From an uncultured Gammaproteobacteria bacterium (lineage in GTDB: Bacteria; Patescibacteriota; Patescibacteriia; UBA2196; CAYSSY01), in assembly GCA_964434055.1 (NCBI GenBank), contig CAYSSY010000003.1, forward strand, positions 10,372 through 74,371: a stretch of DNA of 64,000 nucleotides, read 5' to 3'. Shown here piece by piece: positions 2,076-34,833 of the stretch; the first letter of the stretch is position 1; each line of letters begins with the position of its first letter. The position numbers and the translations under genes are program-made. A model generated the notes under the pieces. That model did no database searches, was not told where the DNA came from, and saw nothing but the letters and a program-made list of their open reading frames with translations.

Positions 2076-3563
2076 TTAAATTCTAACAACTTGACCTGAA
2101 TCGGCATTGACTCTAATTTTGTCTCCATCATTAAATATCTGAGTAGCAATTTTTGTGCCAATAACACAAGGAATCTTTAGTTCTCGCGCCATGATAGCAG
2201 CGTGGCAGGTTATGCCACCTTGATCAGTCACAATCGCTGCCGCTTTTTTCATGGCCGGCACCAGCACCGGTACGGTTTTTTCAGAAACCAAAATATCACC
2301 AAATTCCATTTTAGCCATGTCTTCTAGATCATTAATTATTTTAACCTTGCCCGTCACTTGTCCACCATAGGCAGTCTGCCCAATCAAATTATTTTGAGAC
2401 AAATCAACTTGTTTTGGTTTGAAAAACTGCAGTGCCATTTTTTTTGCCTCAGCACCAGTATAAATTTTAATCTTATGATCAGTTAAAACTATAATTGAAT
2501 GCTGAATACGAGCATTAAGTTCATGAACGTTATGTTTATTATCAACCAAAGCGGCTTTCATTTCCTGAGGCAGAATATGCCTAACCTGAATCGGGGTTAA
2601 ATGTAACCGCTTGGCAATCTCATGAATTAATTTATCCATATAAAAATAAGACTGATACAAGATGTCTTTTCTTTTATTTTTCCACCACATTAATAACTGA
2701 GCATTTTTAAAAAGATAACCTAACTTTTCATCTTTATCAAGCTCGCACTCGCGCCAATATCTTCTTTGTTTAGCAGCAAAATCTTTTCGAGCAAGCTTCA
2801 TCTTTTTCAATTCTTTGAACGGATCTATTTTTCTGGAAAGTAAGTCTTTAGCTTGATCTGTAAAATATTCTTCAGTCCAAGCTTGACCCTCATAATCAAA
2901 AGGCAACCAGCAATACTTTTTAGTGTGGTCCGCAATAAGCTTCTTTGAATAACTATTATTGAGCTTCCTCTTTGATTTAATCAGCATCTCAAGAAAATCA
3001 ATTTGTTCTTGTTCACGGACAGTAGTGCGATTAAGTGTAGTCATGACAAAAAAATATTCACCAACTTGATTCTCTTTTTTCAACTTTTTTAACTTAACTA
3101 GCAATAATTTTTTTAGATATTCAGAAAAAAGATTATTCTGCCCCTCCGGAGCATTGGGCACCCAGCCATATAAATACATCGCAAAATAAAGCTTTCGGTA
3201 TTGAAGATAAAGACTCAATAGTTGATGATTGTTTTTTTTACTTAAATCGCTCCGATAAACAGAGTGGCTAAAATTAATCAATTTACAACAAGAGGCTTCT
3301 AGTTTTTTTAAACAGTGTTGAACCCATTTTTTGTCAGCCATGATTCTCTTAATGGTCTTTTTGGCAACTAAATCAAATCGCTTATTATCGACCGCCCAAC
3401 GATTTACACGTTGACGCCATTCACCAACCGCCGAACCAAAATTCAAACCAGTTATTTTTTGAAAGTGAAAACAAAGCATTTCACTCAACATTAGCAAAGG
3501 CCAAATAGAAACATTATAATTTGAGGTAGCATAACTAAATTTTTTTGGATCCAATTTTACCAT
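2076..3563 (-). CDS. PEP-utilising-enzyme mobile (phosphohistidine swivel) domain protein with an uncharacterised ~380-aa N-terminal domain
   Basis: The C-terminal ~110 aa (GQTAYGGQVTGKVKII...GDILVSEKTVPVLVPAMKKAAAIVTDQGGITCHAAIMARELKIPCVIGT) match the PEP-utilisers swivel domain, including the catalytic His in TCHAAI. No ATP-grasp (PPDK_N, GGK motif) region is recognisable. The ATG start is 3 nt downstream of the last paralog of the array. Confidence 0.7.
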   Translation of the reverse strand: MVKLDPKKFSYATSNYNVSIWPLLMLSEMLCFHFQKITGLNFGSAVGEWRQRVNRWAVDNKRFDLVAKKTIKRIMADKKWVQHCLKKLEASCCKLINFSHSVYRSDLSKKNNHQLLSLYLQYRKLYFAMYLYGWVPNAPEGQNNLFSEYLKKLLLVKLKKLKKENQVGEYFFVMTTLNRTTVREQEQIDFLEMLIKSKRKLNNSYSKKLIADHTKKYCWLPFDYEGQAWTEEYFTDQAKDLLSRKIDPFKELKKMKLARKDFAAKQRRYWRECELDKDEKLGYLFKNAQLLMWWKNKRKDILYQSYFYMDKLIHEIAKRLHLTPIQVRHILPQEMKAALVDNKHNVHELNARIQHSIIVLTDHKIKIYTGAEAKKMALQFFKPKQVDLSQNNLIGQTAYGGQVTGKVKIINDLEDMAKMEFGDILVSEKTVPVLVPAMKKAAAIVTDQGGITCHAAIMARELKIPCVIGTKIATQIFNDGDKIRVNADSGQVVRI

Positions 3564-3566
3564 AAA

Positions 3567-4427
3567 TTATTTACGTTTCATTATATAAATTGATTTGTTG
3601 TGAAAGGAATAACTAGGATCCTGGTCAATCTGAATTATCTTAAAAAATTTTTTAAATATCTTTTCATAATCACCTTGATAAAGCTGGGTAAATTTTGCAT
3701 CCAGGCCTAAGTTAAAAGATAAAGCACGATAAACTGCTTGATCTATCTTTTTACGCTTCAAGAAATTAAGCAGTGACTGTTCATACCACCCAAACTTGAT
3801 CTGCCACTTTTGTTGATCAAAATATTCTTTATTATGATTATTAATAAAGGCTTGATAAATAATTTCTTTATTGGAAAAATTCTTAAACCAGCCTGGCTTT
3901 TTTCGATAAAATTCGATCAGCGCTTTAAACTTCCCAGAGCGGATTTCCTTAGGTAAAAAAGACTTGTTCACCAAATAATAGCAACCATAAAGATAATAAC
4001 CACCATCTTTTAAATAATCATGAACATTTTTATGAAAAGATAAATAGTCTTTAAAGGCGATATTGTCCAAAGCTTCATCACTGATCACAAGATCAAAATA
4101 ATTTTTTTTAAATGGCTGGTCAAGCCAATTGCCTATTTTAAGCCGCTCTTTTGTTGGTTCGGTTTTCATAACGGTTTCCATAGCCTGAAACATTTCACGA
4201 TTAACATCAAGACAGGTGACTTGAAACTGGTGGCGGTTAAGCAGGTCGCGAAATTCCGGCGTTGAACCTAAAATTAAAGCGTGCTTATTTCTTTTCTTAC
4301 CAAATACTTTCTGCAAAAATTGGGAATATTTTTTAACTTCAAAAGGTGAAGGACGCCACGGCGGCGTCACTTTCAACCAGACGTCGGCATATTTTTTCCA
4401 ATTTTTATTAAATACCTTTTTAGACAT
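3567..4427 (-). CDS. Paralog 1 of a Rossmann / class I methyltransferase-like family (LGSTPEFRDL loop)
   Basis: The protein begins MSKKVFNKNWKKYADVWLKVTPPWRPSP, followed by ALILGSTPEFRDLL, VTCLDVNREM, FDLVISDEALDNI and LKDGGYYL. The ORF track extends to 4463, but the ATG at 4427 lies 1 nt after the paralog 2 stop and matches the MSK start of paralog 7. Confidence 0.6.
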   Translation of the reverse strand: MSKKVFNKNWKKYADVWLKVTPPWRPSPFEVKKYSQFLQKVFGKKRNKHALILGSTPEFRDLLNRHQFQVTCLDVNREMFQAMETVMKTEPTKERLKIGNWLDQPFKKNYFDLVISDEALDNIAFKDYLSFHKNVHDYLKDGGYYLYGCYYLVNKSFLPKEIRSGKFKALIEFYRKKPGWFKNFSNKEIIYQAFINNHNKEYFDQQKWQIKFGWYEQSLLNFLKRKKIDQAVYRALSFNLGLDAKFTQLYQGDYEKIFKKFFKIIQIDQDPSYSFHNKSIYIMKRK

Positions 4428-4428
4428 A

Positions 4429-5286
4429 TTATTTTTTAACTTGACCAAAGAAAAATAACGCATAATTCTTGGTGAAAAAGAAATTATCAGCTTGTTTAAC
4501 CGGCATTAGCTGAAAAAAAACTGTCATGTTTTTTTCCAATACCTCTTTCTCAACAAAAGTATGAATGATGTTGCTACGAAACCACCACATGGCGTCAAAA
4601 GCTTTTTGTGAAAGCTCACCTTTTTTATAATATAAATACAAATGATCAAACAATTTTTTCATATATAAACGACATTGCTTTCTATTGTAAATCTTAGGTT
4701 TTAGCTCACTGTTAATATAGAGTGATAAGAACATGTCAAACCAATGAGATACACCACGATCGAATTTTTGGGTTATTTTTTTGACCGAATCTGGCGCAAT
4801 CTTTGAATTAAAAACAAATTCCCTAATAATCAAATAACCATCTTTTTTTAAAAGCCGATGATTTTCTTTAAAAAAACGGCTGTGATCTTTAACACTGATA
4901 TTATTAGTGACGCCGTCGCCAATGACAACATCAAAAGAATTATCAGCTAAACCAGATTCCAACCAATCGCCAATAATTATTTTTTCTTTTTTATGACCAG
5001 CATATCTCATGAGTTTATTGCATTTCACAATCATATCAGTGCTAACGTCAAGAGTAACTAAACTACCACCTAATTCTAAAACCAAATCCCTAATTTCCGG
5101 CGTTGCCCCTAGAACTAAAGCTTTGAAATGCTTTTTATTTTTAACAGCTTTCATTATAAGCTCTCGGTAAACAGCGATAATACCTTTCGCGGCTGATGGT
5201 GCACCTGGATAATTTGAGCGCTCCATAGTTCTTTGATCAGCAATTTTATCCCGCCATTCTTTTTGTTTTCTTTTAGTTATTGACAT
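4429..5286 (-). CDS. Paralog 2 of the same family
   Basis: It carries ALVLGATPEIRDLV, VTLDVSTDM, FDVVIGDGVTNNI and LLKKDGYLIIRE. The ATG is at 5286. Confidence 0.6.
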   Translation of the reverse strand: MSITKRKQKEWRDKIADQRTMERSNYPGAPSAAKGIIAVYRELIMKAVKNKKHFKALVLGATPEIRDLVLELGGSLVTLDVSTDMIVKCNKLMRYAGHKKEKIIIGDWLESGLADNSFDVVIGDGVTNNISVKDHSRFFKENHRLLKKDGYLIIREFVFNSKIAPDSVKKITQKFDRGVSHWFDMFLSLYINSELKPKIYNRKQCRLYMKKLFDHLYLYYKKGELSQKAFDAMWWFRSNIIHTFVEKEVLEKNMTVFFQLMPVKQADNFFFTKNYALFFFGQVKK

Positions 5287-5289
5287 AAA

Positions 5290-6132
5290 TTATTTCTTTT
5301 TAGCTAAATAAAAACGAGAAAGTACTTGTTCACCCGGAAACTCGTCCAAAATTTTAAAGTATTTTTCAAAAGATGATAAATAAGTTTCTTTTTTAAAAAT
5401 TACTGCCTGTTTTTTACTATTCAGATAGATCTTGAGGCCAGCTAATTCCTTCTCGGTAATTCTGTTTTGTTTGTACCAATTATCAAGCAGAGTCAGGTGC
5501 TTCTTTAAATTATCAGAATAATCCTGATAATATATTTTTTCATCTTTTGCCCGCCACGTGCTCAAAAGAAGTAGCCAGCGTAAATCATTAACATTGATAT
5601 TTTTTTGGTGATCATAATGACTAATAATTTCAGCGAAACTTTTAAATTGAAAGGTTTTATCAAAATAGCCAGTTTGCTCAAAAAAATAGCCAGTATTTTT
5701 TAACCAATGATTAATATTTAGAAATAATTTTGGCAAGTCTACTCTGGACACCATGTTAACTGCCCAATCTGATAAAACTAAATCAAAATGATTTTGAGGA
5801 AGAGAAGCTTTTAACCAGTCGGCATTAATCAAAACTTCTTGGGCATAATTTTGTTTCATAAACCGGCGCATGGCAAGCTGCATGTTATGGTTGATGTCAA
5901 TACTGGTTAAATGCCAACCTCGGGCTAAACACAAATCACGTAATTCCGGAGTCGAACCCAACACCAAAGTTTTTATGTTTTTCTTTTTTATAAGCTGACT
6001 TAAATACTTTCGATAAATTTTTATCGAATATGGTGAAACACGCCCGGGCGGCAAAGTCACTCGCCAGTTTTTGACTAAGCTGGGAATAGAATTATCTGGA
6101 AAATATTGGCTTAAATTTTTTTTAAGCGTCAT
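5290..6132 (-). CDS. Paralog 3 of the same family
   Basis: It carries WRVTLPPGRVSP, TLVLGSTPELRDLC, TSIDINHNM, FDLVLSDWAVNMV and LKNTGYFF. The ATG start overlaps the paralog 4 stop by 11 nt. Confidence 0.6.
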   Translation of the reverse strand: MTLKKNLSQYFPDNSIPSLVKNWRVTLPPGRVSPYSIKIYRKYLSQLIKKKNIKTLVLGSTPELRDLCLARGWHLTSIDINHNMQLAMRRFMKQNYAQEVLINADWLKASLPQNHFDLVLSDWAVNMVSRVDLPKLFLNINHWLKNTGYFFEQTGYFDKTFQFKSFAEIISHYDHQKNINVNDLRWLLLLSTWRAKDEKIYYQDYSDNLKKHLTLLDNWYKQNRITEKELAGLKIYLNSKKQAVIFKKETYLSSFEKYFKILDEFPGEQVLSRFYLAKKK

Positions 6133-6976
6133 ATTTTTTCTTTAATAAATAAGCTGGCATCTGCATAGCACAAAAATGATAATCCTGACATTGCTCTAGT
6201 GGGGATATTTCAAAATCTTTGCTTAATAAATCTTCTAAATGATCTTTAAATAATAACATCATGTATTTGTGAGCATTACTATGCGCATCTTGATACCAAT
6301 TAAAAAAATCTTTTATTTCATATTTTTTGTTAATTTTCAAAAGCTCCTGGTAAACAGCATATGAATCAACTATAGTCGGCGATCTCAGACAAGGATTTAT
6401 ATAACTGGAATATTTCAAATAATTAAAAAGTTCTATGTCAGATAATTGACCCTCTCGACGGGCGGCAAAATAATTTCCAACCTGTTCTGGAGTAATCATT
6501 TTGTTGCTAGTAACCGCTACAACCTCTCGGGTTAAAAAATAACCACCAGGACTCAATATCTTACTAATTTTATTAAGTAATTTTATAAGTTCATCCAAAT
6601 TTAAAATTTGATTTAAAGAAGCATCGCCAAGAACCAAATCAAATTCACCTTCTTTAAATTTAGTGGTCAGCCAATTAGAAACCAGGTAGTGTTCGTTTTT
6701 CTCTGTTTGGTGCATTAACTTCTCCATTGCCAAAATCATGCCTTCATTCAAATCACAAACCGTAACTTCATAGCCGTGACTGGCCAGCAGATCACGAAAC
6801 TCGGGCGTGGAGCCGAGAGTTAAGGCTTTAGGATTTGCTTTTTTAGCCTTGATTGTTTTAATAACTTTCTCCCAAATTTTAAGCTGAGTTGGACATGGTC
6901 GTGAAGGCGGCTTAACTAGATCAACCCATGACCGAGCCATAATTTCCCAGGTTTCTTTGTTTTGTGCCAGAGACAT
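6122..6976 (-). CDS. Paralog 4 of the same family
   Basis: It carries WVDLVKPPSRPCP, ALTLGSTPEFRDLL, VTVCDLNEGM, FDLVLGDASLNQI and LSPGGYFLTRE. Confidence 0.6.
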   Translation of the reverse strand: MSLAQNKETWEIMARSWVDLVKPPSRPCPTQLKIWEKVIKTIKAKKANPKALTLGSTPEFRDLLASHGYEVTVCDLNEGMILAMEKLMHQTEKNEHYLVSNWLTTKFKEGEFDLVLGDASLNQILNLDELIKLLNKISKILSPGGYFLTREVVAVTSNKMITPEQVGNYFAARREGQLSDIELFNYLKYSSYINPCLRSPTIVDSYAVYQELLKINKKYEIKDFFNWYQDAHSNAHKYMMLLFKDHLEDLLSKDFEISPLEQCQDYHFCAMQMPAYLLKKKYDA

Positions 6977-6978
6977 AT

Positions 6979-7821
6979 TTATTGCTTCCTTTTTAGTTTA
7001 TAAATCCGAGACAGCTGACGGTAAACTGGGTGACAGGTGTCAGGCAGATACTTTTCAATTACAAAATATTTTTTAAGTAATTTTTCATCTTCTTGGCCAC
7101 TGTAGCCATAGGCCCAATATTTATGGCGTGGAATTATTTTTAAGGTTGCATCATTTAATTTTTTAATTTTTTGATCATTTTTCGCTAAAAATTTTAGTCT
7201 GGCAAAAAGCCGGTCGGCACTGACCTGTTTATTTTGACTGCCGCAACAAAAAACACCAAATGACCACAGATCACTGACCACTTTATCAGTCAATTTCTTT
7301 TGACTCATTTTCACAATCACCTTGTCTAAATCTAACAAGGCTTTTTTGTTAAAATAACTGAAAAAACGAGTAATAAAATAACCATCTTTTTTTAGTAAAT
7401 CATTGATATGCTGATACATTTGAAGTAAATCCCGACGGGGCACATTGCCAGTGACAAAATCACCAAAAACCAAATCGTAATAATTTTGCCTTAAGGGCGC
7501 GGTCGTCCAGCTTGCTTTAATCCAGGTTTCATTGTCTGTTTTTCTTTTCATTAAATTCGTCATGGCAATAATCATTTCCATATTAATGTCACACACCGTC
7601 ACTTTAAGCTGATGATATTTAGCAAACAAGTCTCGCAACTCTGGCGTCGAACCCAACAACAGCACTTGAACATTGTTTTTATTTTTAATTGCTTCGAACA
7701 TTAGTTTTTTAAAAGCCATAATATTGCCGAGAGAGGGCCGGGAGGGTGGATAAATTTTTAGCCAGGTTGCGGCAAAATTCCGCCAGGCTGCAGTATATTT
7801 TTTTTGAAGTGATTGAGGCAT
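6979..7821 (-). CDS. Paralog 5 of the same family
   Basis: It carries WLKIYPPSRPS, VLLLGSTPELRDLF, VTVCDINMEM, YDLVFGDFVTGNV and LLKKDGYFITR. Confidence 0.6.
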   Translation of the reverse strand: MPQSLQKKYTAAWRNFAATWLKIYPPSRPSLGNIMAFKKLMFEAIKNKNNVQVLLLGSTPELRDLFAKYHQLKVTVCDINMEMIIAMTNLMKRKTDNETWIKASWTTAPLRQNYYDLVFGDFVTGNVPRRDLLQMYQHINDLLKKDGYFITRFFSYFNKKALLDLDKVIVKMSQKKLTDKVVSDLWSFGVFCCGSQNKQVSADRLFARLKFLAKNDQKIKKLNDATLKIIPRHKYWAYGYSGQEDEKLLKKYFVIEKYLPDTCHPVYRQLSRIYKLKRKQ

Positions 7822-7822
7822 A

Positions 7823-8629
7823 CTATTTTTTCTTTAAAAAATAAACAGGGCAAAGATATGACAAGCGATGATCAGAAGCGTGTTTTTTGGCTGTGATCTG
7901 GAAATATTTTTTTAGCTTTTTTTCTTCATTAATTTCTGCGTCCTGAAACCAAGTTTTTTCAAAAGGATAATCTGCAATAAATCTTTGATACAAAATTTTA
8001 TATTTTCTTCTGTTAGAAAGTGCTTGCTTACGGATCATCTGCTTAATAATTTGTCTAACACTTCTAAAGTCAAATTGTTTTAGTTTTTTATTCCAAACCA
8101 CTGACTGCAAGGCAAATTGAAACTCGCAGATATTAGGATCTTTTTGATCGGCATAATGTGTGACAACAGCGCTTGCTTTTAAATTATGATCAAGCATTAT
8201 GTGGCGAGTTATAAATAAGCCATCTTTTTTTAATAATCTTTTTATCTCTAAGTAAAACTGGCTGCGCAAATTGAGGGGGATATTGGAAATAACAAAATCA
8301 CCCAAGATATAATCAAAATAATTTGTCTTTAAAGGTGTTTCAAGCCAGTTGGCAATAACCCATGTTTCAGCAGCGCTTTTATAAGAGTATTTCATTAGTC
8401 GCGAGGTTGAGACAAGCATCTCTAAATTCATGTCACAGGCAACCACTTCACATTTTAACTCATGTCCGAGATCACGATATCTAGGTGTGGCGCCCAAAAC
8501 CAAAACTCTAGCGCCGGTTCTCATAACTTTCTTCATTAAAGCAACTTCACCAAAGGATGGTATTATTGGTTCGCGGTAAATATGCCATTGATCAGCAATC
8601 TTTTTAAACCAGTTAATGTTTGAATTCAT
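7823..8629 (-). CDS. Paralog 6 of the same family
   Basis: It carries VLVLGATPRYRDLG, VVACDMNLEM, FDYILGDFVISNI and LLKKDGLFITR. Confidence 0.6.
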   Translation of the reverse strand: MNSNINWFKKIADQWHIYREPIIPSFGEVALMKKVMRTGARVLVLGATPRYRDLGHELKCEVVACDMNLEMLVSTSRLMKYSYKSAAETWVIANWLETPLKTNYFDYILGDFVISNIPLNLRSQFYLEIKRLLKKDGLFITRHIMLDHNLKASAVVTHYADQKDPNICEFQFALQSVVWNKKLKQFDFRSVRQIIKQMIRKQALSNRRKYKILYQRFIADYPFEKTWFQDAEINEEKKLKKYFQITAKKHASDHRLSYLCPVYFLKKK

Positions 8630-8639
8630 AAATGGTTGA

Positions 8640-8712
8640 GTTTTAGTAAGTGGTAGCCAGTAGTAAGTAACAGGGAGTAAGTAGTCGGTAAGCTATAGTC
8701 GTAAGTCATAAG
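8640..8712. repeat. Short tandem-ish array of (A)GTAAGT motifs in the paralog 7 / paralog 6 spacer
   Basis: The motif GTAAG(T) occurs at 8646, 8663, 8677, 8688 and 8701, spaced 11-17 nt apart, within the 91-nt gap between the paralog 7 stop and the paralog 6 start. Confidence 0.4.
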
Positions 8713-8720
8713 TCAGCCGA

Positions 8721-9596
8721 TTATTTGACTTGCATCAGCCAAATCGGAAAACACTGATCATTGCATCTAAAATAGCAATCAGCTAAAACTTTTTTATTCA
8801 GAATCTTAAAATATCTTTTTATTTGCTTTTCGACCTCAACTTCCCAAGAGACGCTCCAGGTTTTTTTCATCGGTTGCCACATCTGCCACATATCGTTAAG
8901 CAAAACGTTTAGTTTTTTATCGGGATGAACAAAATGATCTTTTCTAAAAAATTTGTTTAAACCTTTTATAATTAAAGACAAATCTATTAATTTCTTCCTG
9001 TAATTAAAAGTTAAGTTATGAAGATAAACTAAAAGTTCTATAGACATACAGGAACGATCGCGATAAAAGTCACTGGGGACGTCTTTAAATTTATTAAGAA
9101 CAATCTCATAATCTTCAAATGGAAAATCTTGTGGCACCACCTCAATCTTGCTGATAAAATAACCGCTGTTTTTTAATACACGGACAATCTCTTTTAAAAA
9201 TCTATCTTGCAAATTCCCAGGGACATTTGACAAAACAACATCTCCCATGGCTGCGTCAAAATAATGATCCTGAAAAGGCAAGTCGCACCAATTGCCGCGC
9301 ACCACGATCTCATTTGGATTCTTGTGCTTCATAATCGAAGTCATGGCGAGAATCATTTCCAAATTTAAATCAATAAAAGCAACTTCAAATTTTTCTTCAA
9401 AGGCTAAATCCCTAAGTTCTGGCGTGGAACCAAAAATTAAAACTCGCGGTTTTCTTTTTAAACCACGTTTAGCTGTTCTTAAGTGCCGGCGATATTCGGC
9501 AATGGCACTTTGAGAAGGCCGGCCCGGCGGCCGATAATATTTCTGCCACCTCTGAGCATAATCTTTCCATGGCTCGGCAAAAGTTTCTTTAGACAT
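8721..9596 (-). CDS. Paralog 7 of the same family; first gene of the apparent operon
   Basis: The protein begins MSKETFAEPWKDYAQRWQKYYRPPGRPS, followed by VLIFGSTPELRDLA, VAFIDLNLEM, FDAAMGDVVLSNV and LKNSGYFIS. The ORF-track start at 9632 is a TTG codon, whereas the ATG at 9596 gives an N-terminus that aligns with paralog 1. Confidence 0.55.
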   Translation of the reverse strand: MSKETFAEPWKDYAQRWQKYYRPPGRPSQSAIAEYRRHLRTAKRGLKRKPRVLIFGSTPELRDLAFEEKFEVAFIDLNLEMILAMTSIMKHKNPNEIVVRGNWCDLPFQDHYFDAAMGDVVLSNVPGNLQDRFLKEIVRVLKNSGYFISKIEVVPQDFPFEDYEIVLNKFKDVPSDFYRDRSCMSIELLVYLHNLTFNYRKKLIDLSLIIKGLNKFFRKDHFVHPDKKLNVLLNDMWQMWQPMKKTWSVSWEVEVEKQIKRYFKILNKKVLADCYFRCNDQCFPIWLMQVK

Positions 9597-9654
9597 ATAT
9601 ATAAATCTACCGCGAAATACCTTAAAAATCAATAATAAAAATTTATTTTGTCAT

Positions 9655-9745
9655 ACTGAGCCTGTCGAAGTATGAGCATGTCTGCCCACCGAATCGGATG
9701 GTCAAAGTATAAGTCTGTCACCCTTCGACAAGCTCAGGATAACAT
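9655..9745. repeat. Imperfect inverted repeat (~30-nt arms) upstream of the paralog array and downstream of the TPM-domain gene
   Basis: The arm GTCATACTGAGCCTGTCGAAGTATGAGCATGTCTG is mirrored by the reverse complement of GTCTGTCACCCTTCGACAAGCTCAGGAT, with the core CTGAGCCTGTCGAAG matching CTTCGACAAGCTCAG. Both arms are visible directly in the sequence. Confidence 0.5.
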
Positions 9746-9768
9746 TGATAAATATAGTAAATCAAAAA

Positions 9769-18784: not shown

Positions 18785-19214
18785 TAAACTGGAATAATTT
18801 TTTTCCTCACAATCTTGGATTACTGTCAATTTTTATATAAAATAAAAAACTAGTAGTATCATATCCCTACTAGTATTTATGTAGAGCTCTGTCACTCCTG
18901 TGTTAAATCCTTTAATGCTTTTTCTAGCCTTAAAACAGTAACCTTATCTTTAGCGGAATGAGGTGATTCTTTAAATTTTTTTGTAACCTTTTCAGGATGT
19001 TTGTTACAAATATGACCAAAGAGCCATTCTCAAACACCGCTCTCTTTGTTACAATAAGGACACTTCTCACCCATTTTTGATTACTCCTCTATTAAAGTAC
19101 TTAATTATATTGATAATACTCTTCATATAATATGTCAATATTATTTGGCAATTTGACAAACCTTTAAACCATATTCTAAAATTAAGTCACGAGTAAATTT
19201 TTTACAAATTTATA

Positions 19215-19350
19215 CACAGGCCTTTCCGGTGGTCCATCGGAAAAAATAATCAGGGAAAGCGGTGTAAATCCGCTGCTGTGCCGCAACTGTAACTCTGCCC
19301 ATATTTTGTGGATAAATATGTGAAGAGAAGCCAGATGACTGATACTGTGT
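19215..19350 (+). promoter_or_regulatory. cobalamin (B12) riboswitch aptamer
   Basis: The segment AATCAGGGAAAGCGGTGTAAATCCGCTGCTGTGCCGCAACTGTAA matches the conserved cobalamin-riboswitch core (GGGAA..GGTG.AA.TCC...GC.G..CCGC.ACTGTAA). A downstream GAAGCCAGATGACTG segment is also present. It lies in the 5' leader of the 19437 gene. Confidence 0.65.
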
Positions 19351-19404
19351 TTTATTAACTAATAACTCTTCGAGCTAAAGAGTTTAGGTTTTTATGCCTA
19401 ATCA

Positions 19405-19436: not shown

Positions 19437-21218
19437 ATGAAAAAAACTCTAAATTTTTTCCTAATTGGTATTATTCTGACAATGCCACTTTTTTCATCAG
19501 CAATCAATGTCACGACTGAATCAATAACTTATTTAAAAAGTAAAACCAATAATCCTTGGGTAACGATGGCTTTAGTGGCGGCGGGTGAAAATACTGGTAA
19601 TGTTGATTATCTAAAAAATGTCACTGAAACTGAAGCTGTCAAATTAGCAGCACCTATTTTAGCAATAACAGCACTTGGGCAAGATCCGAGATCTTTTGGT
19701 GCACAAAATTTAGTCTCTCAGTTAAAAAAAACATATAAACAAAATCAACTGGGTGATACTGCCACCATGAATGATGATATTTTTGGTTTGTTGGCCCTTG
19801 TGTCAGCTGGCGAAAATAACGAGGACTTGGTCGTGAATGGTACTAAAAATTTTATTCTTAATCACCAAAACAGCGATGGCGGCTGGGGCTTTCAAGTTAA
19901 TGGTTCATCAGATACCAACATGACTGCCATGGCAATTATGGCCTTAATAAAAGCTGGTGAAGATGGTGAGAAGATTAATCAGGCTGTAAATTATTTAAAA
20001 AATTCACAAAATAATGACGGTGGTTTTCCATATGATAAATCAAGCACTTGGAGTTCAGTCTCCGATGCTTCTTCCGATGCTTGGGTAATTTCCGCTATCT
20101 ATTGTCTGGGACAAGATCCATATAATTGGACGAAAAACGGAAAAAACCCAGTTGATCATTTAAAATCATTACTAGCTAATGAAGGCTACTTTCATTATCA
20201 AACAGGAAGTAATGAAGACTCATTTTCTACCATCACTACTGCTTATGCCGTGATTGCTTTGTCTGGAAAATATTATCCAATTAACACAATTAACGTTAGA
20301 CTAAAAGAATATGCTTTCCGTATTGAAGGCTCTAGTGAGACTATTTGTAGCGGTCAAATCGGGGCAGTAACTGCGCTTGATATTGTAAAAAATGCTCAAG
20401 AAATCTGCAGCTTCAATTATCTAATTGAAAATATGAGTTTCGGACCTTATTTAAAAAAAATAAACACTGATGAAGCACAGGGTTTAAAAGGCTGGCTTTA
20501 TTTAGTCAACTATAATTCACCCACAGTTGGCGCCGCTGATTATCAACTTCAAGAAAATGACGAGGTAATCTGGTTCTATGGTGAGTGGACTGATCAACCG
20601 CTTAAGATAAGCGTTGATAAAACCGAGGTTGGACAAAATGAAAATATCACAGCCACGGTCAACTTTTTTAGTCAATCTGGTTGGCAACCACTAACCGGCG
20701 CTCAAATCTTAGATAAAGTTACAGATAGTAGTGGTCAAACCATTCTATCGTTCACTGATGGCTATTATCGATTATCAGCCAAAAAAAATGGCTTCATAAG
20801 AAGTAATCAAATTAATTTAAAAGTCGGCAATCCTCAAGAAAATTCAGTCTCATTAAAAGTTGAGATTGAAAAGGGCCAAGTTGCTGGCGATGAAACCAAT
20901 GGTTCAGGAACAATTTCATTCTCTGTTGAACCAAATGAGTTAAACTTTGGTAAGTTAAAAAACGGCGCTAACAGTTCCCAAAAACTAAAAATAACTAACA
21001 ATGGCAGCACCGCCATGCATATTGAAGCTAAGGTGGACGGTGATGAACTTTTTCGCAATAACTTACAGCTTAATGATAAGTTCTGGCTTTACTTTTCTGA
21101 AAATTTAGAACAAAATCAAAATCGCGATATTACCGCACAATTGTCAGTTCCAGCAAGCTATGGTGGTAGTGCTGGTTCCAAGCAAGGTGCTCTCATTTTT
21201 TGGGCGATGGCACAGTAA
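19437..21218 (+). CDS. Secreted cobalamin-binding-like protein: alpha/alpha-toroid (prenyltransferase/squalene-oxidase-like 'DGGWG' repeats) + DUF4430-like beta domain + C-terminal Ig-like region (transcobalamin/intrinsic-factor-like architecture)
   Basis: It has a signal peptide and repeats NSDGGWGFQVNGSSDTNMTAMAIMALIKAG and NNDGGFPYDKSS...SSDAWVISAIYCLG. A segment GWLYLVNYNSPTVGAADYQLQENDEVIWFYGEW matches the DUF4430 pattern (W.YxVNG...Y.L..GD.I.W.Y). It is under the B12 riboswitch. Confidence 0.55.
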   Translation: MKKTLNFFLIGIILTMPLFSSAINVTTESITYLKSKTNNPWVTMALVAAGENTGNVDYLKNVTETEAVKLAAPILAITALGQDPRSFGAQNLVSQLKKTYKQNQLGDTATMNDDIFGLLALVSAGENNEDLVVNGTKNFILNHQNSDGGWGFQVNGSSDTNMTAMAIMALIKAGEDGEKINQAVNYLKNSQNNDGGFPYDKSSTWSSVSDASSDAWVISAIYCLGQDPYNWTKNGKNPVDHLKSLLANEGYFHYQTGSNEDSFSTITTAYAVIALSGKYYPINTINVRLKEYAFRIEGSSETICSGQIGAVTALDIVKNAQEICSFNYLIENMSFGPYLKKINTDEAQGLKGWLYLVNYNSPTVGAADYQLQENDEVIWFYGEWTDQPLKISVDKTEVGQNENITATVNFFSQSGWQPLTGAQILDKVTDSSGQTILSFTDGYYRLSAKKNGFIRSNQINLKVGNPQENSVSLKVEIEKGQVAGDETNGSGTISFSVEPNELNFGKLKNGANSSQKLKITNNGSTAMHIEAKVDGDELFRNNLQLNDKFWLYFSENLEQNQNRDITAQLSVPASYGGSAGSKQGALIFWAMAQ

Positions 21219-30005: not shown

Positions 30006-30737
30006 TTATTTTTTCTGGGCAATGGTTAACAAAGTCCAAGCCTGATCAGAACTAGCTTCTACTCCTTTCTGAGTAAACTTGTTAACTAAAACCGAAAAAT
30101 CACTTTTATAAAGTAATACCTCCAGTTCCTCAGGGCTAAAAAAATGACAATAGCGATAAATTATTTTTTGCCGATGTTTCCAAGGAAAATAAATTTCTTT
30201 AAATTGAAAAATTAAACTTAAAGGCATGTGTCGCAACCGAAAAAATAAATTAAAACGACTATGCCAAAATTTTTTCTGTCTAAGGTTCCAGTTAGTCATT
30301 AGAATGTACCCGCCGGGCTTCAGAACCCGTGCGACTTCCTTAAAAATCTTAAGCTGTAAGTCTTGTGATGGTATGTGATGCATAACAGCAATCATAAATA
30401 CAACATTAAACGAGCTATCTGTGAAAGTCGCTAAATTACAAATGTCATCTTTAATAAAATTAACGTTTGTTAAAGCACTAAATTTTTCTTGAGCCTTAGT
30501 AATTAAAGTGCTACAATTATCAACGCCCGTATATTTTATTTTTTTACTTTTTAAAACCTCAAATAAACGACCATTACCACAACCTAAATCAAGAACACTG
30601 TCACCATCTTTAACATATTTATTTAGTATTGTAAATTCAGCCCAAGGGTACTGTCGGGTATTATTAAACTCATCGGCTAAAAAATTATAATCTGCTGTTG
30701 TTTTAGATAGCAATTTGTTAATTAATTTTTTATTCAT
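30006..30737 (-). CDS. Trm9/ALKBH8-type tRNA (carboxymethyluridine34-5-O)-methyltransferase-like class I SAM MTase
   Basis: It carries the N-terminal Trm9 signature YNFLADEFNNTRQYPW (compare yeast VYNEIAPHFSQTRYKPW). Motif I is VLDLGCGNG. It also has FMIAVMHHIPS (compare ISIAVVHHWST) and LKPGGYILMTNWNLRQ (compare GGQALIYCWALEQ). It is divergent from and abuts the Elp3 gene. Confidence 0.7.
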   Translation of the reverse strand: MNKKLINKLLSKTTADYNFLADEFNNTRQYPWAEFTILNKYVKDGDSVLDLGCGNGRLFEVLKSKKIKYTGVDNCSTLITKAQEKFSALTNVNFIKDDICNLATFTDSSFNVVFMIAVMHHIPSQDLQLKIFKEVARVLKPGGYILMTNWNLRQKKFWHSRFNLFFRLRHMPLSLIFQFKEIYFPWKHRQKIIYRYCHFFSPEELEVLLYKSDFSVLVNKFTQKGVEASSDQAWTLLTIAQKK

Positions 30738-30738
30738 A

Positions 30739-32463
30739 ATGAAAATATTAAGTCGCGAAATTAAAAATATTATTCTAGCTACACCTCAAAATGAAGCAAA
30801 TTTATTATCTTTAAAAAGAAAGTTTGCTAAAAATTCCGGTCAACTACCATTGAATTCAGAATTGCTTTCAGTATACCGCAACCTTTTAAAAAATAACAAG
30901 ATTAAAACTGATAAAAACCTGGAGAAATTGCTGAAGAAAAAAAACATTCGAACTCTTTCAGGTGTAGCACCAATTTCTGTTTTGGTAAAAAATTTTCCCT
31001 GCCCAGGCAACTGTCTTTACTGCCCGACAGAAAAAGCCATGCCTAAAAGCTATCTCTCTAATGAACCAGCGGTGATGCGCGCTGTTTTATGTGACTTTCA
31101 CCCATTTAAACAGGTAGCACTGCGCCTCAAAGCCTTGCAACAAAATGGTCACTCCACTGATAAATTAGAACTGATTGTCATCGGCGGTACTTGGAATGCT
31201 CTGCCTGAAAAATATCGCTTATGGTTTATGTATAACTGCTTTGCCGCAGCCAACGAACCACAAATAACAATTAACAAGAAGCAAATAATTATTAGCAAAA
31301 ACCTTAAATTAAAAACACTTAACAAAGTGACTTGGAAAGATTTATATCGTGAACAGAAAAAAAACGAGATGGCACAAAACAGAATCATTGGCTTGACCTT
31401 GGAAACACGACCTGATTATATTACATGTTCAAATGCGCTTGAAATGCGGCAACTGGGCTGCACGCGAGTGGAACTTGGGGTACAGCATCTTAATGATAAA
31501 ATTTTAAAATTAAATCGACGCGGCCATGGTGTTGCTGAAACCATAAAAGCAACAAATATTCTACGTTCATTGGGTTTTAAAATAACTTATCATCTAATGC
31601 TTAATTTACCTGGATCAAATCCAGCTCATGATCTTGCGATGTTTAAAAAACTTTTTAAAGACGCCTGTTTTCAGCCAGATCAGATTAAAATTTATCCGTG
31701 TGTCGTTACTAAAAATTCTGATCTTTATAATCTTTGGCAAAAAGGCCAATACCAGCCTTATAATACTGAACAATTAACAAATCTTTTAATTAAAATTAAA
31801 AAAATTGTGCCTGAATATGTCAGAATAATTAGGGTTATTAGGGATATTCCAGAAACTTCAATCATCGCTGGTAATAAAATAACTAATCTAAGAGAAACTG
31901 TCTTACAAAATATGCTTTTAAATAATAAACCGTGTCGCTGCATTAGATGCCGAGAAGTAGGACATCAACAGAAAACTCAAATGCCCAATGTCAAATGTAA
32001 AAAAATAAAATTATGCACTAATAAATATGAAGCCGGATCCGGAACAGAATATTTTTTAAATTATGAATCAGTTGATAAAAAAGTACTCTATGCCTTTCTG
32101 CGACTACACCTGCCAACTTCTAAAAATCAGTTACTGGTTACTGATTGTCGGTTACCAGCTGCTGGTTACTGGCTACTGACCACCCCGATAATTCGCGAAC
32201 TCCACACTTACGGCGAACTGGTACCGATTGATCAGCAAGACAAGACAGCCAGTCAACACCGAGGCATGGGTAAAAAACTAATTTTGGAAGCAGAAAAAAT
32301 TGCTTGTCAAAATAATTTTAGAGAAATTGCTGTCATTGCCGGGATCGGTGTCAGAAACTATTATCGCAAACTTGGCTATACTTTATTAAAAGACACTTAT
32401 TTGGTGAAAAAATTGCGGAAAAAAAATAATGGTGGTATAGTTGAAATGAAAAAAAATATATGA
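30739..32463 (+). CDS. elp3: Elongator Elp3-like tRNA uridine(34) carboxymethyl synthase (radical SAM + GNAT)
   Basis: The Cys cluster FPCPGNCLYCP is followed by SYLSNEPAVMRA...LQQNGHSTDKLELIVIGGTWNA, which aligns closely with eukaryotic/archaeal Elp3 (GNICVYCP...SYTGYEPTSMRA...GHSIDKVEYVLMGGTF). A C-terminal GNAT/KAT domain is present (HRGMGKKLILEAE). The ORF-track start at 30715 is a TTG codon. The first ATG is at 30739, 1 nt from the Trm9-like ATG on the other strand. Confidence 0.85.
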   Translation: MKILSREIKNIILATPQNEANLLSLKRKFAKNSGQLPLNSELLSVYRNLLKNNKIKTDKNLEKLLKKKNIRTLSGVAPISVLVKNFPCPGNCLYCPTEKAMPKSYLSNEPAVMRAVLCDFHPFKQVALRLKALQQNGHSTDKLELIVIGGTWNALPEKYRLWFMYNCFAAANEPQITINKKQIIISKNLKLKTLNKVTWKDLYREQKKNEMAQNRIIGLTLETRPDYITCSNALEMRQLGCTRVELGVQHLNDKILKLNRRGHGVAETIKATNILRSLGFKITYHLMLNLPGSNPAHDLAMFKKLFKDACFQPDQIKIYPCVVTKNSDLYNLWQKGQYQPYNTEQLTNLLIKIKKIVPEYVRIIRVIRDIPETSIIAGNKITNLRETVLQNMLLNNKPCRCIRCREVGHQQKTQMPNVKCKKIKLCTNKYEAGSGTEYFLNYESVDKKVLYAFLRLHLPTSKNQLLVTDCRLPAAGYWLLTTPIIRELHTYGELVPIDQQDKTASQHRGMGKKLILEAEKIACQNNFREIAVIAGIGVRNYYRKLGYTLLKDTYLVKKLRKKNNGGIVEMKKNI

Positions 32464-32977: not shown

Positions 32978-34234
32978 ATGCCTTTATACGAAAATATAAA
33001 AATTGAAGATCCAGAAATCTACCAGGCACTCATTAACGAACTGGAACGTCAACAGACGGGTCTGGAAATGATTCCTTCAGAAAATTTTGTCTCCCAAGCT
33101 ATCTTGGAAGCCTTGGGCTCTATTGCCACCAATAAATATTCTGAAGGTTATCCTCATAAACGCTATTATGGCGGACAAGAATACATTGACGTCATTGAAG
33201 AACTGGCTATTGAACGCGCTAAACAACTATTTAAAGCTGAACATGTTAATGTCCAGCCTCTTTCTGGTGCACCGGCCAACTTGGCTGTTTATACAGCTTT
33301 ATTAGAACCAGGTGACACAGTCCTGGGTATGGATTTATCACATGGCGGACATTTAACCCATGGGCACCCAGTAACACTCCCGGCAAGAATTTACAATTTT
33401 GTTCGTTATAAAACTGATATGCAAACCGGCTTAATTGATTATGATAATTTACGAGAAATGGCTTTAAAAAATAGACCAAAAATTATTTTAGCCGGCTATT
33501 CAGCCTATTCTCGAATTATTGATTGGCAAAAAATAAAGACTATTGCTCAAGAAGTTAATGCATTAACTATGGCTGATATCGCCCATATTGCTGGCCTGAT
33601 CGCTGGTAATGCCATGGAAAATCCTGTACCAATTTTTGACGTCATAACCACTACTACTCATAAAACCCTGCGCGGACCAAGGGGTGGCATGATTATGTGT
33701 AAAAAAAGCCTGGGGGAAAAAATCGATAAAGCTGTCTTTCCACATCTCCAGGGAGGACCACATGAAAATAATATTGCTGCCAAAGCCATTTGTTTTAAAG
33801 AAGCTTTGGAGCCGAATTTTCAAGACTATGCGCAACAAATCATAAAAAATGCCAAATCTTTAGAATTAATTTTAAAAGAGCACGGATTTAAAATTTGTTT
33901 TGGTCAAACAGACAATCACTTGCTTCTAATTGACCTGACTAACAAACAAATAACTGGTCATGAGGCTCAAGACTTGTTTGATGAAGTTGGTATCACGGTT
34001 AATAAAAACATGATTCCAGATGACCCAAGAAAACCTACCGATCCCTCGGGTATTAGATTAGGGACGCCAGCATTAACTACCCGTGGTTTTATAGAAGATG
34101 ATATGATAATTATTGGCAATCTATTAGCGGAAATAATTGAGAATAAAAATGACAACTCAGTAAAAGATAAAGTCCGCCATGGTGTTAAAGAACTGACACA
34201 AAAACATCCTCTTTATCAAAATTTAATAAAATAA
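32978..34234 (+). CDS. glyA: serine hydroxymethyltransferase
   Basis: It carries MIPSENFVS, YSEGYPHKRYYGGQEYID and the PLP-Lys region TTTTHKTLRGPRGG. Confidence 0.95.
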   Translation: MPLYENIKIEDPEIYQALINELERQQTGLEMIPSENFVSQAILEALGSIATNKYSEGYPHKRYYGGQEYIDVIEELAIERAKQLFKAEHVNVQPLSGAPANLAVYTALLEPGDTVLGMDLSHGGHLTHGHPVTLPARIYNFVRYKTDMQTGLIDYDNLREMALKNRPKIILAGYSAYSRIIDWQKIKTIAQEVNALTMADIAHIAGLIAGNAMENPVPIFDVITTTTHKTLRGPRGGMIMCKKSLGEKIDKAVFPHLQGGPHENNIAAKAICFKEALEPNFQDYAQQIIKNAKSLELILKEHGFKICFGQTDNHLLLIDLTNKQITGHEAQDLFDEVGITVNKNMIPDDPRKPTDPSGIRLGTPALTTRGFIEDDMIIIGNLLAEIIENKNDNSVKDKVRHGVKELTQKHPLYQNLIK

Positions 34235-34257
34235 AAAAGGCCTTAAAAAACAGGCCT
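34232..34257. terminator. Palindromic hairpin AGGCCT-N8-AGGCCT with flanking A-run, shared 3' end of glyA and the convergent small ORF
   Basis: The sequence AAAAAAGGCCTTAAAAAACAGGCCT forms the hairpin. On the minus strand the hairpin is followed by TTTTTT. Confidence 0.45.
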
Positions 34258-34525
34258 ACTGACAATTGTGTGTCACAGAAAAAATCCTTGACTGTTTAAA
34301 TATATGTGCCAATCCTGGTGTCTTTGGGTATAAATCATAAGAAATTTGACTTTCATTATCCAAAATTAATTCCTGAATAATCGCTCTTTTTAAACCATCA
34401 TGTTCCAAAGTTTTGTGTAAAGCATTGGGAGCAATATTGGCAATATGATGGTAAACGACCAGTCCATTTGGTTTTATAAATAAAACCTCATAGAAACTGT
34501 TTTCTTCTAATCGTCCTTCAATCAT
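34256..34525 (-). CDS. hypothetical small protein (downstream member of an overlapping two-gene cassette)
   Basis: It is 89 aa. Its ATG overlaps the stop of the upstream small ORF by 4 nt. No motif is recognised. Confidence 0.4.
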   Translation of the reverse strand: MIEGRLEENSFYEVLFIKPNGLVVYHHIANIAPNALHKTLEHDGLKRAIIQELILDNESQISYDLYPKTPGLAHIFKQSRIFSVTHNCQ

Positions 34526-34776
34526 AATATATGTACTCCATTGACTTCAAATAAAAAAGCAGTGTCGGTCCGGTTGGTTGGTGGATAGTCAATTGCTTTA
34601 GGTTCTTTCTCTCTTATGACCTCAATGAATCTTATTGAATTTAAATTCAATATCTCTTCCACTTCTGCTAGAGGAACTAGCCTGATACATTTTTGATCAC
34701 CATTAGAAAGTCGCATCATGGCCACAAACTTGGTTTCCGAAGTAAAAGGTTTAAGTTGATCTTTAAAATTTGACAT
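34522..34776 (-). CDS. hypothetical small protein (upstream member of the two-gene cassette)
   Basis: It is 84 aa. It lies on the opposite strand between glyA and folD. Confidence 0.4.
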   Translation of the reverse strand: MSNFKDQLKPFTSETKFVAMMRLSNGDQKCIRLVPLAEVEEILNLNSIRFIEVIREKEPKAIDYPPTNRTDTAFLFEVNGVHIL

Positions 34777-34833
34777 TGAACCCTCCTAAAAAAGTTAAAT
34801 TAAAAATAGCAAAATTCTTCTAATAATAAGCCT

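Follow-up and report, generated by a model that had tools for sequence, protein, structure and literature searches.

A candidate small-molecule modification operon of Patescibacteria and DPANN archaea, present in one strain without its usual head gene

The analysis of a 64-kb stretch of DNA (hereafter the window) suggests that eight consecutive genes near its start represent a truncated copy of an operon conserved in Patescibacteria and DPANN archaea, which typically comprises a PLP enzyme, a series of methyltransferase-fold (MT) paralogs and a dikinase subunit, and whose products most likely modify small molecules rather than macromolecules; we give this reading a probability of about 0.45. 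A full-text literature search recovered neither a description of the operon nor a characterised system matching it. This agrees with the original prediction, which could name no such system: the paralogs belong to no well-characterised family, and their linkage to the kinase subunit recurs in other genomes.

Gene layout and the missing PLP gene

An ORF check recovered eight co-directional minus-strand ORFs at 2076-9632, with every coordinate as first predicted. Starts were compared with those called in L001, a sister contig from a 99%-identical strain. In the direction of transcription the features are:

9633-9768, no strand: upstream intergenic region with the putative PLP-gene deletion scar, a hybrid of two CCTGAGC..TGTCGAAGG repeat copies
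8721-9596, minus strand: M1, MT-fold paralog 1, 291 aa from the ATG at 9596, which is also where M1 begins in the sister contig (a TTG start would give 8721-9632)
8630-8720, minus strand: 91-nt spacer between M1 and M2 with five CTTAC repeats
7823-8629, minus strand: M2, paralog 2, 268 aa, with the motif variant LGATPRYRDL
6979-7821, minus strand: M3, paralog 3, 280 aa, the copy chosen for structure modelling
6122-6976, minus strand: M4, paralog 4, 284 aa, identified by ORF, Pfam and family HMM
5290-6132, minus strand: M5, paralog 5, 280 aa, with an 11-nt overlap with M4
4429-5286, minus strand: M6, paralog 6, 285 aa, with the best Pfam scores of all seven (Methyltransf_11, E 4e-11)
3567-4427, minus strand: M7, paralog 7, 286 aa from the ATG at 4427 as in the sister contig; the ORF is extendable to 4463
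2076-3563, minus strand: PU, a predicted dikinase "H" component (substrate-binding and phospho-His swivel domains), 495 aa, PF00391

The measured gaps from M1 to PU (91, 1, 2, -11, 3, 1 or alternatively -35, and 3 nt) bear out the predicted tight packing, with genes 1-3 nt apart or overlapping and a single repeat-containing spacer of 91 nt. The genes flanking the operon have housekeeping functions. A weak promoter-like site lies on the minus strand at 9668-9640, within the upstream intergenic region, and the promoter and terminator scan as a whole did not rise above shuffled expectation. Rfam searches of the window, the operon 5' region and the PLP leader of L001 found no riboswitch; the sole match was a sub-threshold sRNA over the repeat. 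In the spacer at 8630-8720, the five CTTAC repeats compare with 0.02 triple-repeat matches expected by chance, and among 167 loci this repeat is restricted to the strain lineage of the window. A 27-codon ORF (8709-8626) likewise occurs in the spacer, its stop codon shared in part with the start of M2 (ATGA); it shows no conservation elsewhere in the 167 loci and is probably a chance occurrence.

The operon in the window is incomplete, a point overlooked in the original prediction: the PLP gene that usually heads it is missing. A profile search of the 64-kb window did not find it, while L001 retains a 378-aa gene of the PF01053 Cys/Met-metabolism PLP family. BLAST comparison places this gene on a 1517-bp segment (L001:2314-3830) missing from the window; the two window-L001 alignments overlap on window positions 9718-9733, CCTGAGC..TGTCGAAGG repeats flank the segment in L001, and the window carries inverted repeat copies at 9656-9671 and 9722-9737 as a scar. 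These sequence features indicate that the PLP gene was deleted from the window by recombination between the flanking repeats. Its apparent dispensability in this strain weakens the case for an obligate three-enzyme pathway. The L001 protein retains the catalytic Lys, in SMTKY. Its nearest PDB entries are plant cystathionine gamma-synthase (CGS; the best match), CGL and MGL, the E-value of CGS being better by no more than some three orders of magnitude, and its NCBIfam scores all lie far below the family cut-offs.

The methyltransferase-fold paralogs and the kinase subunit

The proposal that the seven paralogs descend from one ancestor is supported far beyond chance, in that a family HMM matches every copy with E 1e-68 to 1e-104 (M1, 3e-104), even at the 24-32% identity of the other copies to M1. 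Their predicted methyltransferase-like fold is likewise supported by matches of all 7/7 to Pfam Methyltransf_11/25 and by nearest structures with the class I SAM-methyltransferase fold. The Pfam alignments begin only at profile position 12-19, with E 1e-7 to 1e-11 (for M1 and Methyltransf_11, E 5e-10 from position 19), as against position 1 and E 1e-21 for a canonical methyltransferase elsewhere in the window (30006-30737). This offset coincides with the replacement of motif I (E/DxGxGxG after beta1): almost every one of some 125 family members has LG[SA]TPELRD at this place, and all Pfam and PDB alignments start downstream of the replaced loop. The seven copies share LG[SA]TP..RDL and invariant D88, M93, W115, D126 and D131 (M1 numbering), and D78, W105, D116 and D121 (M3 numbering) are conserved in at least 90% of 125 members. 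The shared motifs originally listed are real, with LLKKDG confined to three copies. The ribose-binding Asp that closes beta2, the N/D-W following beta3 and the D..D of beta4 are nearly invariant, as would be expected of a working cofactor site.

The modelled M3 displays a Rossmann-like alpha/beta fold of seven strands, of which beta6 and beta7 form a hairpin, and a hypervariable helical lid inserted between beta5 and beta6. Both this model and the identity profile place the variable C-terminal part in the lid, as had been supposed. Mean identity among the seven copies is 34% in the cofactor core and 15% in the lid (residues 156-250), and recovers to 30% over the last 30 residues, so that the earlier description of the C-terminal halves as barely alignable holds for the lid and not for the extreme C-terminus. 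The structures nearest to M3 are small-molecule methyltransferases with lids (177-222 of 280 residues aligned); profile matches in the PDB are to PH0226 and phosphoethanolamine N-methyltransferases, the latter aligning at E 3e-10 to 5e-7 over the core plus some of the lid. Relative to the small-molecule methyltransferases of the Methyltransf_11/25 group (PH0226, phosphoethanolamine N-methyltransferases, BH2331), motif I and the N-terminal third of the paralogs are unalignable. The structure search with the modelled copy gave no match for the lid, the N-terminal 75 residues had no sequence match in the PDB, and NCBIfam offered no RNA or protein methyltransferase model near cut-off, nor a model for any operon protein. 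M1-M7 form a distinct subfamily of the class I SAM-methyltransferase fold, comprising about 710 clusters at 50% identity. Given that the GxGxG SAM loop is replaced, methyl transfer is a predicted activity; the replaced loop, the alignments that start after it and the unmatched N-terminal 75 residues together indicate that SAM binding may be altered or lost.

Phosphoethanolamine N-methyltransferases rely on a catalytic Tyr/His dyad. When aligned by HMMER with nematode PMT2, the paralog has Asn at what we take to be the catalytic His position; this difference, along with an alignment that leaves out all but the core and some of the lid, speaks against assigning the paralogs to that family. A single MT fusion was found, to an MR/MLE enolase-superfamily domain on a non-CPR contig.

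Six of the seven paralogs (all except M5) are more closely related to sequences from other genomes than to any copy in the array, and arrays in other genomes have diverged to the same degree. Against the 99%-identical sister strain pN/pS is 0.22, with 76 substitutions, 44 of them in M1. These comparisons indicate that the paralogs are old subfamilies under purifying selection rather than products of a recent amplification.

The last gene is, as predicted, a phospho-histidine swivel protein: PF00391 covers PU residues 422-490 (E 6e-24), and the catalytic His, H454, lies in GGITCHAAIMAR and is invariant in 97 homologues. The AF2 model (pLDDT 95) spans a rifampin-binding-like domain and the His-swivel domain and contains no ATP-grasp (PPDK_N) domain, which full-length homologues carry. 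Its best PDB match by Foldseek is rifampin phosphotransferase, RPH (5fbu, 5fbt, 5hv1; E 2e-12, TM 0.50, 468-578 columns), the resemblance extending across both the substrate-binding and the swivel domains. In RPH, however, an N-terminal ATP-grasp domain forms part of the same polypeptide; at 15-17% identity, without PPDK_N, and with NCBIfam RPH models scoring 53-71 bits against cut-offs of 999-1700, PU is neither an orthologue nor a rifampin phosphotransferase proper. Among the papers found, one includes rph-like genes of CPR in a listing.

The match to RPH minus its ATP-grasp domain likens PU to the substrate/phospho-His component of two-component dikinases such as HpeHI, CreHI and PpsAB (phenylphosphate synthase), in which the ATP-grasp subunit is separately encoded and the H component bears the motif GGxT[S/C]HAA[I/V] with the catalytic His (PMC12167813). 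PU conforms to this motif (GGITCHAA, within GGITCHAAIMAR) and shares the arrangement of a rifampin-binding-like domain with a C-terminal swivel. It differs from these systems in being about 100 residues shorter, in the association of its orthogroup with MT arrays, and in having no partner gene within the window. Neither the 64-kb window nor the additional 3.7 kb covered by L001 contains an ATP-grasp partner gene, for which reason PU may be inactive here. Stand-alone ATP-grasp genes lie beside PU arrays in 8/82 and 23/80 of the related loci listed, and in CPR/DPANN loci a single ATP-grasp gene precedes as many as 9-10 H components, an arrangement not described for HpeHI, CreHI or PpsAB. Among the homologues searched there were no MT-PU, PLP-MT or MT-ATP-grasp fusions, and long PU proteins proved to be tandem PUs or PPDK_N fusions.

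Conservation of the operon in other genomes

Genomes were scanned with the pattern LG[SA]TPELRD, the best 80 matches being kept, and loci were annotated by simple ORF calling and HMM thresholds. Fourteen loci bear the label "uncultured Gammaproteobacteria" in TPA assemblies, a label best treated as provisional. Among the loci listed, 30 are arrays, found in Patescibacteria and DPANN archaea, with the PLP enzyme in 23/30 and PU in 18/30. The usual order is the PLP gene, then 1-16 MTs, then the kinase subunit; among the loci listed there are 22 PLP-to-MT junctions, and 18 direct MT-to-PU junctions with a median gap of 2 nt. This synteny upholds the linkage of array and PU, and the occurrence of the operon across both groups contradicts the original description of it as lineage-specific. 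Singletons make up 52/82 of the MT loci listed, and 12 of these 52 adjoin a DUF1749 hydrolase instead; since many contigs end inside the 10-kb flanks, the singleton and no-partner counts are upper bounds. Seen from the PU side, an MT is present in only 4/80 of the loci listed. The 12 PUs nearest to that of the window are all MT-adjacent (12/12 vs 20/179 overall, p 5e-8), and the PU of the window is accordingly a member of an orthogroup seen only directly downstream of MT arrays. The MT subtype adjoining the PLP gene or PU is not conserved in a positional-orthology comparison. Riboflavin-pathway genes flank 5/32 core loci but are absent beside the roughly 48 remaining ones, and several loci have phosphotransacetylase, acetate kinase or PFOR as a neighbour. 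Neither scaffold-forming enzymes, transporters and glycosyltransferases nor SAH hydrolase, nucleosidase, LuxS, MetK and methionine synthase recur in the loci, and a scan of viral contigs for the MT family gave no matches.

Proposed function and alternatives

PLP C-S lyases coupled to S-methyltransferases are found in LmbF/LmbG, GliI/TmtA and the mammalian thiomethyl shunt, and may serve as a lead here. The functions first suggested for the block, xenobiotic or antibiotic inactivation and decoration of a cell-surface molecule, are conjectural. In the reading that we prefer, each paralog would bind SAM and methylate a different small acceptor picked by its lid. By analogy with HpeHI/PpsAB, an ATP-grasp subunit encoded outside the window would charge PU on His454, converting ATP to AMP and Pi with transfer of the beta-phosphate to the His, and a small molecule might then be phosphorylated by PU on one of its hydroxyl groups. 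As for the PLP enzyme, it could supply acceptors (thiols, via C-S or gamma-lyase chemistry) or remove SAH-derived homocysteine, a step presumably lost in the strain of the window. Since the MTs differ from locus to locus but the PLP enzyme and the PU orthogroup do not, both may act on something common to all MTs. That constancy would also suit a role in cofactor supply, in which the PLP enzyme breaks down homocysteine, or thioethers that derive from SAH, to 2-oxobutyrate or, together with PU as a homoserine dikinase, makes homocysteine or methionine from O-phosphohomoserine, thereby sustaining a SAM-hungry MT set. Plant cystathionine gamma-synthase, which the PLP enzyme resembles most among PDB entries, uses O-phosphohomoserine, and the phosphotransacetylase, acetate kinase or PFOR of several loci could turn 2-oxobutyrate into ATP. 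However, the narrow lead of CGS and the low NCBIfam scores, the lack of recurring SAH-recycling and methionine-cycle genes, and the action of all characterised two-component dikinases on phenolics (PMC12167813) make this rather improbable. A single pathway, with the PLP enzyme priming one scaffold, the MTs methylating different positions and PU phosphorylating last to yield a polymethylated phospho-metabolite or surface decoration, is less improbable though still unlikely: the conserved gene order, the one dedicated PU orthogroup closing the operon and the riboflavin-pathway neighbours favour it, but loci carry anywhere from 1 to 16 MTs, whose positions are not orthologous from one genome to the next, the loci show no recurring scaffold-forming enzymes, transporters or glycosyltransferases, and here the seven MTs were kept under purifying selection despite loss of the PLP gene.

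The replaced motif I and the late-starting, weak Pfam alignments raise the question of whether the paralogs are methyltransferases at all, rather than binding proteins, pseudoenzymes or catalysts of some other SAM-dependent reaction (aminocarboxypropyl transfer or cyclisation, for instance). Active methyltransferases without a canonical GxGxG are known, for example CheR and TPMT, and the near-invariance of the ribose-binding Asp, the N/D-W and the beta4 D..D also argues against this possibility, which we hold to be less probable than the cofactor role. That the array consists of housekeeping RNA, protein or DNA methyltransferases, or belongs to a methylation-based defence system, appears very improbable. 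Its neighbours are housekeeping genes and PADLOC reports mad2 matches at E 1e-8 to 1e-11; these, however, span only profile positions 310-400 (to 478 for M5) of 492, which correspond to the generic MT domain, and the remaining MADS components are absent, so that an assignment to MADS was rejected. The absence of RNA or protein methyltransferase models near cut-off, the lidded small-molecule enzymes among the nearest structures, the variable copy number and the absence of the family from viral contigs likewise count against this alternative.

Patescibacteria and DPANN archaea have tiny genomes, depend on hosts, and possess much metabolism without an assigned role; some of them nevertheless devote 10-15 kb to tandem arrays of the MT and PU families. 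A more speculative proposal, to which we give little credence, is that these ultra-small episymbionts (CPR, DPANN) possess a combinatorial small-molecule processing system with up to 16 interchangeable MT-fold enzymes bearing a re-invented cofactor loop, framed by a PLP lyase and a dedicated H component, and that, apart from this cassette, a single ATP-grasp subunit serves as many as ten different H components; scavenged host compounds would be trapped by phosphorylation, or masked or volatilised by methylation. The replaced SAM motif might point to chemistry beyond plain methyl transfer. If correct, these proposals would define an MT subfamily with a replaced GxGxG loop in fixed partnership with a divergent PLP enzyme, and a dikinase architecture with one ATP-grasp subunit serving many substrate components, which would extend the recently recognised two-component dikinases past aromatic catabolism. 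Together, the two would offer a testable way into how Patescibacteria and DPANN archaea handle scavenged or toxic small molecules.

Layout and genomic setting of the operon

The ORF listing of the window bears out the originally predicted minus-strand operon of eight co-directional genes, namely M1-M7, seven paralogs with a methyltransferase (MT) fold, followed by PU, a swivel-domain protein of the dikinase H-component type. Our comparisons robustly identify it as the truncated form of an operon that is conserved elsewhere, in which a PLP enzyme and a dedicated dikinase H component accompany a variable cassette of genes for small-molecule MT-fold enzymes.

Features of the window
2076-9632, minus strand: operon of M1-M7 (268-303 aa; M1 ATG at 9596, M7 start at 4427, as annotated on a near-identical public contig) and PU (495 aa)
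8630-8720: M1-M2 spacer with five CTTAC repeats
8709-8626: 27-codon ORF in this spacer, MTYDYSLPTTYSLLLTTGYHLLKLNHL, its stop overlapping the M2 start codon
9633-9768: repeat region next to the operon
19201-19362: cobalamin riboswitch (40.4 bits, above the gathering score), upstream of the following gene
19437-21218: 593-aa protein with a prenyltransferase-like alpha-alpha toroid and a DUF4430 domain
30006-30737: canonical Methyltransf_25 gene
30715-32463: radical-SAM gene, divergent from the preceding one with a 23-nt overlap
32978-35676: SHMT and FolD, near the preceding pair

The intergenic gaps, in operon order, are 91, 1, 2, -11, 3, 1 (or -35) and 3 nt, and the CTTAC repeat of the first spacer is confined, among 167 loci, to the strain lineage of the window. 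Housekeeping genes flank the block: TrpRS, a hibernation factor and ATP synthase lie at one end, and genes for a TPM-domain protein, LemA and RNase J at the opposite end. With RpoB/C, RecA, FtsK, SHMT and similar genes elsewhere in the window, this places the block on the chromosome, and the homologues of the block indicate that the genome belongs to Patescibacteria. The riboswitch and the domain composition of the 593-aa protein suggest that the latter may be a B12-capture surface protein.

The contig of a sister strain, L001, is 99% identical to the window and encodes an identical PU, with an additional 1.5-kb segment between the TPM gene and M1 that contains, at L001:2582-3718, a 378-aa Cys_Met_Meta_PP (PF01053) gene, here the PLP gene. 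A CCTGAGC..TGTCGAAGG repeat borders this segment on both sides (L001:2290-2313 and 3804-3850), and the window retains a hybrid copy of it at 9633-9768 that forms an inverted pair and gives a sub-threshold Rfam match (AaHKsRNA41, 34.6 bits vs a gathering score of 97). As a PLP gene stands at the head of the array in 20 other loci, the state seen in the window is a deletion. The substitutions separating the strains are clustered, with 44 of 76 in M1 and none in PU, which suggests a putative recombination tract, and the overall pN/pS of 0.22 implies that the operon genes are maintained. The PLP proteins retain the catalytic Lys and are closest to plant cystathionine gamma-synthase, followed by cystathionine and methionine gamma-lyases, with scores far under the curated family cut-offs.

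The methyltransferase-fold paralogs and the dikinase subunit

M1-M7 align over their full length, with 24-32% identity to M1, and the alignment of all copies contains the shared motifs from which common descent had been proposed, including the LG[SA]TP..RDL motif with its invariant G, T, P, R, D and L. All seven fall within Pfam Methyltransf_11/25 (E 1e-7 to 4e-11), and none comes near the cut-off of any curated NCBIfam model. The Pfam matches begin at profile position 10-19 and therefore skip motif I; as an internal control, the canonical methyltransferase at 30006-30737 aligns from position 1 (E 1e-21). Profile searches of the PDB with the family recovered PH0226 and phosphoethanolamine N-methyltransferases (E 2e-11 to 5e-7), in alignments that always begin past the LG[SA]TPELRD segment, and the first 75 residues had no PDB match even at E 10. 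Across the family, L-G-[SA]-T-P-E-L-R-D near-universally replaces GxGxG, and conservation is 90% or higher at the Asp of beta2, the W that follows beta3 and each of the two Asp residues of beta4. We infer that M1-M7 bind SAM.

The AlphaFold2 model of M3 (125 homologues as input, pLDDT 93) adopts the seven-strand topology that is standard for class I, with ~100 helical residues inserted between beta5 and beta6. Identity among M1-M7 is 34% in the core, 15% in the lid and 30% in the beta6-beta7 tail. Taken together, the modeled fold, the conserved core and the variable lid indicate that the idea of a shared pocket beneath diversified lids is structurally sound.

Sequence matches of PU are confined to its C-terminal swivel domain (PF00391, PEP synthase, RPH), in which the catalytic His454, within GGITCHAAIMAR, is invariant in 97 homologues. 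Its AlphaFold2 model (pLDDT 95) has as top PDB match the rifampin-binding and swivel domains of rifampin phosphotransferase (E 2e-12, TM 0.50, 468-578 columns). PU is without the ATP-grasp domain, which occurs in its PPDK_N version in some homologues of ~830 aa; related loci contain stand-alone PPDK_N genes, and the 64-kb window has no ATP-grasp gene. PU shares its architecture with the H component of HpeHI, CreHI and PpsAB, which are two-component small-molecule dikinases. In these enzymes the His is charged by a distinct ATP-grasp subunit, and the H component can by itself exchange phosphate between substrates (PMC12167813). PU paralogs are 45-55% identical in the swivel and 16-24% in the substrate domain, and so share the design of the MTs.

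Distribution and constancy of the operon

LG[SA]TPELRD was sought in 185,579 species-representative genomes; this yielded 76 loci (best 80 matches kept), which were annotated with purpose-built HMMs. An exhaustive HMMER search of 1.84 billion representatives delineated 710 clusters at 50% identity (E < 1e-30). By label, the hosts are mainly Patescibacteria and archaea of the DPANN group; a few high-GC singletons fall outside these groups.

Partners of MT genes (contigs often end within the 10-kb flanks, making singleton counts upper bounds)
Arrays, at least 2 MT genes: 30 loci; PLP gene in 23; PU in 18
MT singletons: 52 loci; PLP gene in 7; PU in 4

The linkage of MT array and PU first noticed in the window thus recurs in other genomes, and at least one of the PLP gene and PU accompanies the MTs in 26 of the 30 array loci. 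MT genes number 16 and 10 in the two largest arrays. The median gap is 2 nt at both MT-MT (n=96) and MT-to-PU (n=18) junctions; PLP-to-MT junctions number 22. Six of the seven window MTs, M5 being the exception, have their closest relatives not among their siblings but in other genomes, at 36-55% identity, and arrays in other loci are equally diverged (median identity 30-34%). No MT subtype was tied to the PLP-adjacent or PU-adjacent position in the loci compared.

PU differs from the MTs in this respect: each of the 12 PUs nearest that of the window immediately follows an MT gene, vs 20 of 179 PUs overall (p 5e-8). From the PU side, MTs are present in just 4 of 80 metagenomic loci. The majority of PUs in these 80 loci form arrays with one ATP-grasp gene and up to 9-10 PUs; for HpeHI and PpsAB, no such sharing of one ATP-grasp gene by many H components is described. 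Such tandem arrays (L091, L096, L122, L145, L166, also L103 and L139) are usually preceded by a single stand-alone PPDK_N gene, and their recurrent neighbors are HAD hydrolases, in 7 loci, and TrmB regulators, in 6.

Several further associations were observed. A DUF1749 alpha/beta-hydrolase adjoins 12 of the 52 singleton MTs, in archaea and bacteria (L008, L009, L019, L022, L024, L027, L036, L044, L045, L084, L021; weaker match in L062), a methyltransferase-plus-esterase arrangement that is distinct from the array mode. Riboflavin genes, namely flavokinase, riboflavin synthase, lumazine synthase, RibBA and EamA-flavokinase fusions, occur next to 5 of 32 loci that contain PLP/PU and next to 0 of ~48 others (L041:12680-14086, L034:10851-12248, L012:12837-14123, L035:19564-20163, L047:17041-19630). 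Phosphotransacetylase lies directly upstream of PU in two loci (L005:125-1114, L040:7449-8456) and is present in a third (L075:2989-3978), and acetate kinase directly precedes the module in L006:1-1135. Protein P0364 (L087:4172-6511) fuses a family MT to a mandelate racemase/muconate-lactonising (enolase superfamily) domain on a contig of 55% GC, unlike CPR; two pairs of aconitase/LeuCD-like subunits precede it and a transporter-like membrane protein follows, a context that hints at carboxylate substrates for some family members. P0275, P0276 and P0282 have six (1704 aa) or two tandem MT domains per ORF, and are putative fusions or gene-calling artefacts.

Interpretation of the operon

Neither the folds nor the principle of a two-component dikinase is new. 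In the literature searched we found no description of the MT subfamily with a replaced motif I, of MT arrays with fixed PLP and PU partners, or of the CPR/DPANN architecture of one ATP-grasp and many H components, all of which appear to be undescribed.

Several explanations compete for the function of the operon. That M1-M7 perform chemistry other than methyl transfer remains an alternative, favored by the loss of the glycine loop across the family. Two others likewise remain: the MTs could serve one pathway leading to a single polymethylated product, or the PLP enzyme and PU could service the SAM/homocysteine pool. Methylation of macromolecules or in defence is the least likely explanation.

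To our preferred reading, lid-selected methylation combined with a trans-charged kinase and constant partners acting on a shared item, we assign a probability of about 0.45. Each MT, using SAM, would methylate its own acceptor as chosen by the lid, while His454 of PU would be charged by a trans-acting ATP-grasp subunit for phosphorylation of a small-molecule hydroxyl. The constant PLP enzyme and PU would act on something common to all the MTs, which might be the supply of acceptors, such as thiols produced by C-S or gamma-lyase chemistry, or the disposal of a by-product.
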